Assembly (NCBI GenBank): GCA_002633005.1
Contig: NMRA01000591.1
Location: 26,209 to 84,237 of the forward strand
DNA: 58,029 nucleotides
Direction: 5' to 3'
Origin: Phoronis australis
Taxonomy: Eukaryota > Animalia > Phoronida
Position numbers and translations under genes: made by a program. Positions 29,001 to 35,000 of this stretch are shown one piece after another (positions within the stretch are counted from its first letter, which is position 1; the number at the start of each line of letters is the position of its first letter). The notes beneath the pieces are model-generated. The model saw nothing but the letters and a program-made list of their open reading frames with translations. It had not been told where the DNA came from and did no database searches.

Positions 29001-32000
29001 GATTTCTCTTCTGGGTCTTAGCCACTATCGACTCTTGTGATTTAATATACAGATTGAAAATAAATTGCTATTTTATCCAGTGATTTTTTCATCACTCTCA
29101 GTATTATGTTGTCAGCAAAATATGTGTCACAATTCCATCACATACAAGCATTAGCTGTCAATTTATTCAGAACAAATTCTGTATTCAAGACAGTGCACTC
29201 TTTTGACCTTGGTCTTCAAATGACCTTAACCTTGTAGTGACCTTGCCTTTACTAGTTTTGCTAATTTCTCCTCGTCTTATTTTTCAGAGCAAGGTATGAC
29301 TTCTGTTATTTCCTAGTGTTGCTTTTCAAGTTTTAGTTCATTGATCCCTTTGACACTGCAGTTTCACCCTAGCCAGCCAATACTAATGTTCCCTCTTGAT
29401 AGTCACCGTTTGACATTTGGGCAACGACCTGGAATAGCAGACAAACTGTGCATGTTTAACAAATTGTCCTGTCGAGTTTCGGTTTCAGTTCTATGTCGAA
29501 CTGTGTTGGGCAGTGCTTGGGTGAGACGGCTCTTTGCAGTATTGCATCAGACTTGCGCCATTTTGGGACTGTGCTGCAAAATGGGAAGTTTACTCCGTAG
29601 ATTTTCACACCGGCACTCTTCAAACGAGTTACTTTGAATTTAGAGCAGTTTAAGTGTCCGTCACGTTTATTTATGAAACAAAATCCCAATTTGATGTTTT
29701 TTAAACATGTCTGTATACTTGGCATTTTGCCAATAGCGTACGATCATGTGTGGTCAAAGGGTGTTCTATGTTTGCTTTAATACGTACTCCAATCAATTGT
29801 GGCTTTCAGTAGTCTCTCGCGGACATTTGCGTCACCAGTTGATCCCCAGTATTCTGTAAATGAGAGATATTTGGCCCATCAATGTCGCATTGTAGATGCA
29901 ATACTGTCATTGTCACTGTATACATTTTGTCCGTGGTATCAGGCTTAGTTTAAATTTTCTGCAATTTAACCATTGCTCTTGTTCATTATTGTCTTATTTC
30001 GTGGCAGTAACCTTTAAGGTACATGGCATGGTTGCACTGTCAGGTTTTTGTAGAAGCCGGAAAGCTTCAATTTTATTTCAGTCCTGGATTTACACTGGAC
30101 GACCAGCAGTTGAACCAAGTGAACAATATTTTTGTAAATGGATAAACTGGAATGAATATTTGCCCTTATGCAAAAGTTTAACTGCAAAACTTTAAACAGT
30201 TAATTCCCAAAAGGAAGTCCGGCATGCAGTTATAGGACTGTAATGTAGATGGAGGTGTGTCATTTTGTGACATTACTGCATCACTTAGGTGACGTTCTGT
30301 GATTGGCAGTTTCGATTTCTAGACGAAAGTGTTGATGTGTAAAAAGTGTTTTAGGAATGTTCAATACACTGGACATTCATGCTGACGATACTGTTCAAAA
30401 AGGAATGCACAAAATATCATTTTCCCCACGCCGATATCCTGAGAACTCACTTGTGGACATAAAATATTTTAAAAAATTGTGGACATTCACAACTGTGATG
30501 TCACCAGACAACCTTGAAAAATGAAAAAGTACAATTTAGGCAATTTTTTGTCCGAAATTGCTAAACTTTTACCGTACATCTTTCCAACTTTATGTAATTC
30601 TGCATTCTTGGTTAAGAGGAACAGCAACTTGCACCCTGCCATCGTGACAGTTATTTCGAATTTTTTTGCGTTTACCGCATTGTCGGAAAGTACATTGTGT
30701 TGATTTGTAGCAGCAGTAGACTCCAAGCGGCATTAAACCCTGTTCTCTGTCAAAAAGAGTGTTTTGATTCAGGCCACTTGCCATTATGAGATGGGTGTCA
30801 ATTCGTTCCTTAATCGAAATAAGTGTAATTTCCGGGCTTCGAAAGACCTGTTCTGAAGATTTGAAGATTTCTGAGATTGAACTGGAGAAATAAGGAATTG
30901 TCAGTCCTTCCCGGGCCCAGAGATCTCGTTTAAACTGAGCAAGGAATTAGACAAGACAAATTTCCTAACGATATTAAGTGACCTGTATCAAAACTTGCCC
31001 TTACCTAAAGCACAGGTTTAATATCACTTCAGTTTGCAGGTACCGCACGAATTTTGTTCGGTGTTTTTCGGGAACCTTTTGCTAAGCAACTGCTCGGTTA
31101 CTACATTGAATCGGTTGATCTAAAACTATGTAACTGTTTCGTAATGCGTTGTTGCCATGTGCATGACTTCTGAAGAGTACTCGACTGATTTCCCGTAGTT
31201 GTCTCACCATAGAATGATGCAGCATGTGTAGGAGTTAAGCGTAAATTCATTGTTTATGCTCCGAATGTGCACAGTATCATGCGAAATGCCTTTAGAGGAA
31301 GCTAACAGTAGGTCTGAAAGAAACGACGGAATTTCTTCTTTTGGAAAGCTGGCAATGTTTTGAAATCAAATTTTCTCTCTTGTTTTCAAATCATTTGCTG
31401 TTATTTTTTTCACCTGCTTTCCATTTGGGTAAGCATTAAGATCAAAATGTTTGTCTTTTCTTTCGAAAACTACTGTCTGTGCACTTTGAGAGAAGTTTGA
31501 AAACCGATGCTAATTTTGAAATCCCGCTGGCAATTTTACATCAAACCCTTAAAAACAAGACTGCAATTTTTTTTAAAAACAAAAAATGTTTTACTATCAA
31601 AATTCAAACAGCAATTTTAGAAAGGTTAAAAGTACTGCCTTTTACGTCCAACCATAAAACAGTGCAGTGCCGTATTGTGAGAATTAAGAGTAATGGCAAC
31701 TCACCGGATTCTGAACTTGAAACCAAATTGATTTTCGCCATGTATGTTCCAGATAAAAGTCACACAGGTTGTGAACGTGGTACATGCAAGTGCAATCGGT
31801 TGTTAACAAATTTTCTGTAGCGGCTTTATTTGTGCTATTCAAAAAGTCCGTGTAGTATAATTGGTTTGATTTTGTTGCTGTTAGCGAATGCTTGCAGTTG
31901 ATTTGTTGTTTCAGGCTGCCGATCTCGGCTCCATGGACCCTATACTGGAGCGCCAAGTGGAGACTATTCGTAATCTTGTCGACTCGTACATGAGAATCAC

Positions 32001-35000
32001 TAACAAGACAATACGTGACATGGTTCCTAAGACTGTTATGTATTTAATCTTGAGTCAGGTCGGTTGGTGCACTGAGCTCTAGTGCATGCTGGGATTGAAC
32101 AGTGAAGTCACAACCAATAACCCAATTATGTGCAGTGACCCAATTATGTGAAATGTCCAAAGTAATATGCAATGACCCAATTATATGTCATGACCCAATT
32201 ATATGCAAAAACTTAGTTATGAACGTAGCGTATATGCTACTGCAGTGATTGTTTTAAAATTTAAATTTTCTTGCTTATGTTGCCATGACAGCAATTTGCA
32301 TCTGAATGGTATCTCGGCTGTCGTGGCTTGTTTTAATATTTCTGCATCTAATTGGACAACATTGCTTGTTGGCTTGACTATCATCCCGGGGTTTGTGTAT
32401 TAAGGAATGTCTCCTTGTTTACTACTCCTCGTGTCTTTCTAGCGAGAAGAGTTCTCACTCGACCCACAGCTGGAGAGACAGGTCGAAATGATTCGCAATC
32501 TGGTCGACTCGTATTTGCGCATTGTAAACAAGACTACTCGCGACATAGTGCCTAAAACCGTCATATTCATGATTATTAACTCCGTATGTTGGTATTGTGT
32601 GACCCAGGCAACCTCACTTCAGCTGGCTAATCTCTTCCACACTGGCTAGTAGGGTCGAACTTTGCTGTCTCCGCTGGCTACCATGTTCTCTACTTGTCTT
32701 CTTGACTTACTTTGGCGAGGCTCTTGTAGAATCAGAGTTTTCTCCCCTGCTGTCTTTGCTATAATGCTCTTCTTGACGTATACATTCAAATGTGGCTTGA
32801 TCTGCTATAACCACTGCTGCAGCAAGACTTCTGCAAAATCGCACCCTGCTCTCCCATCAGGTTTCTATGGCAACGTGGTAATAGTGGGATATAGCATGCT
32901 CGCATTCTGTGAACCAGTTTTTCTCGACTGAATAACGGACGTCAAACTGGTTCTCAAAATGTGGACACGTTTATCCAACTGTTGTCTGACGATGATATTG
33001 TCGTTGAACTGAACACTACTCCATGTTGGCTCGTATAGTTTTGACTACAATTCTGAAAAAGCAAGGTGAAAAATAATAGAATTACACTGTAATTCTTGCT
33101 CTAAAATTTGTCAAGAGACTCCATTGACTTTTTTAGAACTACTGAACAGCTAGTCGCCTATAATCAAGCCACTGTTTTTCGTGCCATCTTCCATGACTGT
33201 GTGGCTCTTTTGATTGCAATGAGGCTTTTAACTTAGGGATTCCAAACAGCTGCCCTTTTTACTGGCTTCTAGTAGATGAATATTTATAAATTCATTGAAA
33301 AAATTACGAACTCCTCGTCGTCTGAAGTAAGGGAACAAAGATCTGTTGATTCAGTTTCATGTAATTTCTTGTGATTTATCCCCAACCCAGAGTTTAAACG
33401 ACTTTGACAGAATTTTGTCACGTTTTGTCTCTTCAATTCTACTATGCAGTGCGGTTTTACAATACCATTCGGTTTAATCCCAACACAGTGTGTTCTTTAC
33501 AAACAAGAGAAGGGATCTATTTACTATTGTATGTCGCTTAAAAGTGATTCTGCTAGTTTTTTTAGTGGCCATACATTCTTTTAATTGATGTGATATTGGT
33601 CTGGCTGGCAGTTGCTGTCAAATCAACGCTGTCTCATGGACTTGATCTCTTAATTTATCCTTCGTCGCAACAGGCAACCTTCTTCCTCGTGAATGTCACA
33701 GGTATTCTCACTGTTTTCTGGTGAGATGGGTGTTGTTTCCTGTGCTGGGTAATTGTGTGCTCACAAACACATTTCTTTTTCCATGAACTCCCTATTGGAG
33801 AATAAAAAGAACTGGGGTTCGTGAGGAAGGCAGCATGTTTGGTCAGGACAAAATTCCATCGCATTAGAGGAAATACCACTTGTGAAATATTAATTGAGCG
33901 TTCGTGAGAAAAGAACACTTCGTCTTTAATGAGAATACATGTGATTTGAGGAAGGACGATTGTCTCTCCTGTTGCTGTGGCTAACAAACCCGACGTAAAA
34001 TATTTTGCACATTTCTGGCTTTTGCTTTTCGTATCTGATAACGTCTATGATCTTTTTATGATTCATTTTCTGGACTGTAACGTTTGAATTTAAGTGTACA
34101 TATTTTCAGTTTTCTTTTCACTTTCAAGGCGTACATATTTTCAATTTTCTTCTCACTTTCAAAAGTTATCAAGTCTGTACTCGTTTTCCCTTTTCTTTGA
34201 CTACTTAGTAATCTGTTGAGCTGAACTGGTTGGCATGGTTCATTATAAAGTGCTTCACAATTAAAATCTTTGTTCTTAAAGGGGCATTCTCACGGAAATA
34301 AAGTAATTTCACAGAAATTGGCTTTAGCATGGAGCCAAACTCACTAGCTCCACAGCAGCAGTCAAACGCTCTATTGCTGAACCAAACATGATGCATTAAT
34401 TGGCAGAGTATTTTAAGTGCATTCTAATTATAGTAAAGACACCGGCCTTAATTTCAGTGAGTCTGTCAGACAAGGGCGAGAATTGGCGATTTATAATAAA
34501 TTCTAAAATCTATCCATCCAGCAATAATTCCAAAAATAATGCATTTTCGGTTGATACTGTCCCTTTAAAAACTTGACTTCTCACTTTAGACACGTATGGC
34601 TTAATAATTTGCCGAATGTCTGCTGTTTTTTTCTCGACAGGTAAAGGATTTCATTGGTGGGGAACTATTGGCTCACCTGTACAGTACTGGGGACCAGGTA
34701 TGTTGACGCGGCAAGAGTTTGCAACAGTGGAAATGCTGTTCCCCTACAGCAATATGATTTTCCACCAAAAATTAAATAGCAGAGGCAGAACCTTTAGAAT
34801 TTTATTAGTTTTTAAAGAAAATCACTTATTTCTGTGACAGGTTGCAGAGATGCCATTTGTTGTGCAAATTGTATCACAAAATGTTTCTGTTTGTGTTTTC
34901 GTGCTGCAAGTTATTTATTATGGTTTCGGATACTGGATAAACGAATTATGTGGCGTACTATACAGAATTTTTGTATTTATTGTCTTTAACATCTGATTTT

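Follow-up and report, generated by a model that had tools for sequence, protein, structure and literature searches.

Tandem copies of a GED helix exon in a dynamin gene of Phoronis australis are both spliced, each skipping the other

In the phoronid Phoronis australis, a stretch of 58,029 nucleotides (nt) of contig NMRA01000591.1 (the window, numbered here from its first letter) carries a dynamin gene with two neighbouring exons, 14A and 14B, that encode the same helix of the GED. This raises the question of whether both copies are used, whether one excludes the other from the mRNA, and how the choice between them is made. We found that both copies are used and that each is joined in a way that skips the other. 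Our reading is that A and B, both intact, stem from an old tandem duplication of the exon that encodes the first GED helix. On this reading, each is spliced alone between exons 13 and 15, giving two dynamins that are likely to differ in how they self-assemble, and splicing proteins probably decide which copy is used. We give this reading a probability of roughly 0.72.

The gene lies on the plus strand at 13910..48540, starts with the codon at 13910 and has 17 modelled exons. The model is open to 35983, giving 825 amino acids with 14A and 824 with 14B, and it has the build of a classical dynamin, with GTPase, middle, PH, GED and proline-rich regions in one gene. A tblastn search with two dynamins matched all exons in collinear order, and residues 1-636 are 82-84% identical to named mollusc, brachiopod and nemertean dynamins. 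Per-exon profiles for exons 1-16 revealed a second copy for only one of the 16, exon 14. This indicates a single-exon duplication, neither a second gene nor an assembly repeat.

The upstream copy, exon 14A (31915..32058, plus strand, 144 nt, 48 amino acids), has an acceptor ending in TTTCAG and a GTCGGT donor. It encodes the end of the PH-stalk linker and the first GED/stalk helix, about residues 645-692 of dynamin-1. The downstream copy, exon 14B (32443..32583, plus strand, 141 nt, 47 amino acids), has an acceptor ending in TTCTAG and a GTATGT donor. A GT-AG intron of 384 nt (32059..32442, plus strand), with an 18-nt tandem repeat at 32115-32208, separates them. Both copies are open, AG/GT-bounded and phase 0-0, with lengths divisible by three; the lengths, phases and spacing proposed in an earlier, sequence-only reading of this DNA were exact. 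Each exon alone matched Pfam GED (A 43.1 bits, B 38.1 bits, cut-off 21.4) and matched dynamin-1 and dynamin-3 chains with an E value of about 1e-16, over dynamin-1 residues 648-691.

We compared the two copies and found 30 of 47 aligned residues identical, all 30 within a core of 43, as had been read from the sequence together with many synonymous differences: 18 of the 30 identical residues are written in different codons, and third positions agree in only 14 of 47. A direct repeat of 111 nt with 70% identity is confined to the exons and excludes the introns. The dN/dS comparison proposed earlier gave a saturated proportion of synonymous differences (pS 0.83) and a non-synonymous divergence (dN) of 0.25 over 43 codons. 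Of the variants in the RNA reads described below, all 3 in B leave the protein unchanged (chance about 0.013), and so do 9/10 in the other exons examined. The single non-synonymous variant, Lys to Glu at 35347, lies at the start of the proline-rich region, in 7 of 12 reads of one run (X2). The saturated pS, the low dN and the synonymous variants together indicate that the duplication is old and that both copies are constrained. A and B are under purifying selection, and their mean identity to single-copy dynamins is 73% for both. The two exons also have the features by which mutually exclusive pairs are recognized, being similar neighbours in the same frame without a stop (Hatje et al. 2017, PMC5740500).

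Splicing was followed in three stranded RNA runs labelled with the same species (X1, X2, X3), aligned on 27800-36100. The reads examined make up about 18-19% of each run, and junctions were listed from 3 reads per run upwards; a further run of contigs, X4, has no coverage of A or B. Exon 13 (28780..28915, plus strand, end of the PH domain) provides an upstream donor common to A and B, and exon 15 (34641..34697, plus strand, 57 nt, continuing the GED helix) provides the common downstream acceptor. A total of 63 junction reads was obtained. Exon 13 is joined to A by 12, 8 and 7 reads in X1, X2 and X3, with 3, 0 and 0 more passing through a microexon (30 in all), and A is joined to exon 15 by 3, 9 and 4 reads (16). 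For B, the corresponding counts are 4, 4 and 0 from exon 13 (8) and 6, 3 and 0 on to exon 15 (9). The 13-B joint therefore skips A (8 reads, two runs), and the A-15 joint skips B (16 reads, three runs). Neither an A-B joint nor a 13-15 joint skipping both copies was listed in the three runs, where fewer than 3 reads per run stay hidden.

These counts carry out the junction check proposed earlier, by run and not by tissue. The case in which one copy is never spliced in does not apply, since B is spliced in two of the three runs. They also dispose of the view that A and B are an assembly artefact, a pseudo-exon or part of a second gene. Such things do seem to occur in sequence databases: we set aside exon repeats in dynamins of Acipenser, Silurus and Paragonimus (near-identical) and Choristoneura (multi-exon) as probable artefacts. 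The Phoronis copies are instead synonymous-saturated, intact and spliced to the same flanking exons, with no other exon doubled, and the artefact view is already refuted by the junction reads.

A second alignment of largely the same reads, on 31760-32749 at 90% likeness, gave 12, 8 and 7 reads (X1, X2, X3) into A and 3, 12 and 4 out of it (46 A boundary reads), against 6, 6 and 0 into B and 6, 4 and 0 out of it (22 B boundary reads). These boundary reads continue into exon 13, the microexon or exon 15, with 99-100% agreement, and no joint within 31760-32749 was listed at 3 reads per run. The 12 reads into B are balanced by 10 out of it, as would follow from entry into B through exon 13 alone. 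B makes up 44% of the boundary reads in X1, 33% in X2 and 0% in X3, where B has no depth, and A is the commoner form in these runs. The contrast of 0/11 B reads in X3 with 22/57 in X1 and X2 gives a Fisher p of 0.012 (0.08 with acceptor reads alone).

Some observations weigh against our reading. Hidden A-B joints, at up to 2 reads per run, could at worst amount to about 4 of 35 reads, with an upper 95% bound of about 24%. X1 has 12-15 reads into A and only 3 going on to exon 15, an imbalance that may reflect sampling. The nemertean Tubulanus polymorphus also has a doubled exon 14, and among its 12 RefSeq isoform models X1-X12 (XP_074655019-30), two carry the upstream copy only (X8, X10), three the downstream copy only (X7, X9, X11), and seven carry both; exclusivity may thus not hold everywhere. 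In RNA runs X1 and X2, every B read departs from the window at 32493 and 32538 (both synonymous). X3 is the run nearest the window, with 88 of 100 reads at least 99% alike. Since the B alleles are unlike the window and the window-like X3 has no B, genotype and tissue are confounded. Finally, the exon tree described below rejects neither a private nor a shared origin of the pair.

The first of these points could mean that A and B are two independent cassette exons, usually included singly and sometimes together, with the extra copy looped out in the flexible PH-stalk linker. Co-inclusion would keep the frame, models from Paralvinella palmiformis (one) and Macrostomum lignano (two) contain both copies as the seven Tubulanus isoforms do, and joints with fewer than 3 reads per run are not listed. 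However, no A-B joint was listed among the 31 reads that use the A donor or the B acceptor, no read skipping both copies was listed, and the counts into and out of B balance. Automatic gene models, moreover, may fuse in-frame tandem copies that lack read support. We therefore consider independent cassettes improbable and near-strict exclusion of A and B likely. The mutual exclusivity that had been proposed is, in its strict form, likely though unproven, as low-level A-B joining may fall below the listing threshold.

The allelic differences suggest another explanation, in which B is spliced from some haplotypes only, is silent in the window's own, and the difference between runs is genetic. In addition to the two sites in B, unspliced reads differ at 32416, 32423 and 32424 in the pyrimidine tract of B, and X3, closest to the window, lacks B coverage. 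But every X1 and X2 read is also unlike the window at the constitutive site 35307, which indicates that these runs simply come from other individuals. Position 32577 in B is mixed (6/9 and 4/8 reads), which shows that two B alleles are spliced, and the window's own B is intact, with synonymous differences only. A haplotype-restricted B is thus very improbable.

How, then, would the choice between A and B be made? Steric exclusion acts when donor and branch point are less than about 50 nt apart; here the intron has 384 nt, the AG-free zone before B has 38 nt, and predicted, motif-based branch-point candidates lie 22-107 nt upstream of B. Exclusion by frame shift and nonsense-mediated decay does not apply, as 144 and 141 nt are both multiples of three. 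The expectation that both exons keep the frame and lie too far apart for steric exclusion was thus borne out. Nor is there a U2/U12 incompatibility: the donors are GTAAGT (exon 13), GTCGGT (A) and GTATGT (B), judged by eye against the U12 consensus. The B donor, TCC|GTATGT, fits 5 of 9 consensus positions and is tied weakest among the 11 donors checked.

With frame and steric causes excluded, exclusivity could be enforced by competing RNA structures, a docking site with selectors, as reported for dynamin-1 10a/10b and insect Dscam1. Control of this kind is stated for dynamin-1 10a/10b in PMC3923563, citing Suyama 2013. We scanned for long-range duplexes around A and B, and in 0 of 6 window tests did they beat shuffled sequences (10-20 of 20 shuffles were equally strong). 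In three annelid-like loci with a doubled exon 14, none rose above shuffles in 6/6 tests. Among the 25 longest of 63 inverted repeats, no arm is common to both exons, and no shared intron words exceeded shuffles. No alternating pairing element stronger than chance was found in these scans, so the RNA-structure option raised by the sequence-only reading gained no support. RNA structures of this type are seldom conserved over long distances (PMC5740500), and a lack of conservation across species is weak evidence against them. Taken together, we consider competing RNA structures unlikely.

The lack of a steric, frame, U12 or duplex cause, together with B use ranging from 44% to none, makes regulation by splicing proteins the most likely explanation, by elimination. 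RNA-binding proteins would repress B, with its weak donor, in some samples and A in others, and the choice would likely follow tissue- or stage-dependent splicing proteins.

We next consider what the swap may do to the protein. The copies differ at 13 of 43 core residues, mostly by conservative swaps. Six differences cluster in 686-692 of dynamin-1 numbering (M/I, Y/F, L/M, L/I, S/N, Q/S), a cluster that includes position 690. Residues unseen among 71 single-copy segments are L690 in A and M661 and I686 in B. H687 and L688 reportedly belong to interface 2 in the dynamin-1 crystal structure. The stalk is built from the middle domain and the GED, and its interface 2 makes the core dimer (PMC12550548 and PMC5084822); I690K and K694A inhibit self-assembly (PMC2171915 and PMC3216009). 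Differences at such assembly-relevant residues make a change in assembly plausible, and the A and B dynamins likely differ in self-assembly. The swap would affect dimer or polymer stability. An AlphaFold model of the two-copy Tubulanus isoform had a predicted template modelling score (pTM) of 0.40, too weak to use.

To see how widespread the doubled exon is, protein searches used exon A and a profile of upstream copies. Two diverged copies of exon 14 occur in proteins of the nemertean T. polymorphus, the annelid P. palmiformis and the flatworm M. lignano (2 models). One gene call, P0001, has two copies with a read-through of about 13 residues between them; if this gap is an intron, its roughly 39 nt would exclude co-splicing sterically there. 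Among metagenome loci, 80 of 226 matched were kept, 50 of them genomic with an intron after exon 14 and 30 without one (transcript-like or intron-less). Four of the 80 (L063, L064, L071, L077) have two open, AG/GT-bounded copies, 324-1171 nt apart, between exons 13 and 15. Their downstream copies group with annelid sequences, and both copies are constrained, the upstream ones less so, with dN between loci of 0.12-0.46 vs 0.02-0.14 downstream. A single copy was found in 15 loci with both flanking exons in view, many of which look redundant, and in 31 with flanks cut short.

Isoform sets with only one version of exon 14 were found in Lingula (6), Lineus (8), Haliotis (8), Argopecten (7), Mizuhopecten (7), Gigantopelta (6), Branchiostoma (23), Daphnia pulex (12) and Folsomia (3), although such models do not prove genomic absence. 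No listed protein is more than 83% identical to either exon, and a protein search with exon B returned 84 candidates with no close relative among them.

The occurrence of the same doubled exon elsewhere raises the question of one origin or several. In a tree of 26 dynamins built from exons 1-13, the window protein joins lophotrochozoans in a group whose branching is unresolved. It falls neither in the annelid clade, which is supported (96/93), nor among the gastropods, and its nearest relatives by path are Tubulanus and Paralvinella. The exon tree (33 copies, 46 columns, drawn from the set other than Macrostomum) left 19 of 30 forks open. Approximately unbiased (AU) tests, run without copy 1 of P0001, rejected one of eight groupings, the L063 pair (p 0.039), which indicates that this annelid-like pair predates those species. 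Groupings of A with B (0.15), of all upstream copies (0.09) and of upstream copies with B (0.16) were not rejected. The claim that this lineage independently evolved the pair is thus unproven and not supported as stated, since a nemertean, a flatworm and annelid-like loci also have the exon doubled, and given the open tree and undecisive AU tests.

Individual residues give further hints. The rare Y674 shared by the Tubulanus copies and the rare L689 shared by the L071 copies are signals of private origin. Q654, which 103 of the 107 single-copy segments have, is replaced in 7/9 upstream copies (six times by I, V or L) vs 0/9 downstream copies, and N691 is changed in 6/9 vs 0/9. Across the 24 conserved sites, A departs only by Q654I and N691S, a coincidence with p 0.011 if sites are uniform and 0.09 if weighted by site variability, in a post hoc comparison of non-independent copies. 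Common non-consensus residues shared by A and B number only two. This residue signature leans to shared origin or parallel specialization, and the duplication probably predates this lineage. A shared spiralian origin with many losses has somewhat better than even odds, and repeated duplication of the same exon somewhat less than even odds.

A bolder account is that one ancient spiralian duplication was kept in flatworms, nemerteans, annelids and Phoronis and lost elsewhere, leaving a specialized upstream helix and a tissue-wise switch of the dimer face. The upstream copy would then be a specialized stalk helix, with Q654 replaced by an aliphatic residue and N691 lost. If true, splicing would switch the dimer-forming face by tissue, setting polymer stability or co-assembly of isoforms, and, together with other duplicated exons, would make invertebrate dynamin a modular, myosin-like, splice-tuned machine. 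We hold this full account only tentatively and think it doubtful as a whole.

Several further features were observed in the window. The 6-nt microexon (Ser-Lys; 29288..29293, plus strand) in the PH-stalk linker was joined to A by its 3 reads in X1 and was not seen joined to B. It matches small variable PH-GED insertions mentioned for Drosophila shibire (bioRxiv 10.64898/2026.08.24.746809). At 19020-19154, a 33-nt unit that copies the exon 3 end with its donor site occurs four times in tandem, possibly providing alternative exon 3 donors. The end of exon 17 (35983) joins two targets, an optional proline-rich exon near 39778-39880 and the last exon, from 48476 (both plus strand), giving alternative proline-rich tails. 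At 32903-32972 there is a short multi-copy element with an inverted repeat, both-strand reads and unrelated flanks, with a similar stretch near 23190; it is probably a small transposon. Divergent from the dynamin gene, on the minus strand at 1873-5920, are exons of an AMP-binding enzyme gene (Pfam PF00501), which we take to resemble a fatty-acid transport protein. Broken reverse-transcriptase fragments resembling a long interspersed nuclear element were seen by eye in an intron of that gene (3343-5037, plus strand).

Other dynamin exons, single in the window, appear in same-length versions in database isoforms. PH exon 12 (110 nt) has 2-3 versions in molluscs, Lingula and Lineus (P0058/P0189/P0193, P0070/P0071/P0075, P0277/P0276/P0273, P0361/P0267, P0288/P0287), likely an old lophotrochozoan cluster in the lipid-binding domain. 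GED exon 15 (57 nt), the next piece of the GED helix, is alternative in four heterobranch snails, with two versions each in Biomphalaria, Physella, Bradybaena and Elysia (P0105/P0200, P0080/P0084, P0130/P0131, P0111/P0120). Branchiostoma isoforms differ in same-length blocks of exons 5, 10 and the start of exon 11 (P0093/P0098/P0182, P0173/P0181, P0102/P0097), and Daphnia pulex isoforms have same-length alternatives of exon 4.

In vertebrates, dynamin is tuned through three genes together with stalk exons 10a/10b, and mice with a mutation in 10a develop epilepsy. The Phoronis pair adds an RNA-supported swap of a different stalk helix, beside self-assembly residues, in an exon doubled in at least three other animal groups. 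A and B supply natural assembly-surface variants for biochemistry. Dynamin exons have been duplicated repeatedly in different lineages (4, 5, 10, 12, 14, 15), and we found no paper on this pattern. We found none on alternative GED exons or duplicated lophotrochozoan dynamin exons either, in a search that covered literature other than subscription papers, supplements and the Kollmar-group databases, which may already list the pair. Within this literature, the stalk helix pair, very likely mutually exclusive, has not previously been reported as alternative, though one RefSeq annotation already shows it. Duplicated exons that are spliced exclusively are common, and the functional difference between A and B is only predicted, which tempers the finding.

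The closest known system is the 10a/10b pair of vertebrate DNM1 and DNM2, also a tandem, same-length pair of stalk exons, with usage that shifts with context and one copy per mRNA, as is likely here. The divergence is similar, with 14 of 46 residues in 10a/10b and 13 of 43 core residues in Phoronis. In contrast, 10a/10b is a middle-domain exon, covering dynamin residues 399-444, and invertebrate dynamin is stated to lack this pair (PMC2916854), whereas the Phoronis pair encodes a GED helix (about 645-692). As the sequence-only reading had noted, the 10a/10b region is here one uninterrupted 207-nt exon, exon 9 (24458..24664, plus strand), which is single and maps without break to dynamin-1 377-445. 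An RNA-structure mechanism has been reported for 10a/10b, and none was found for the Phoronis pair.

The dynamin-1-like gene of Tubulanus is a further match, with the same exon doubled at the same boundaries and single-copy isoforms of either kind, which carry no functional annotation. Its upstream copy is far more diverged, with a mean identity of 58% to single-copy dynamins, vs 73% for A and B. The myosin exon clusters offer a wider parallel: a mechanochemical NTPase diversified from a single gene through exon duplication. Kollmar and Hatje (PMC3912159) explain the patchy distribution of these clusters among lophotrochozoans by early gain and many losses. Helobdella is among the losers there, and the Helobdella dynamin model shows one copy of exon 14. 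Myosin is a different protein, and its clusters are well surveyed, whereas no survey was found for invertebrate dynamin.

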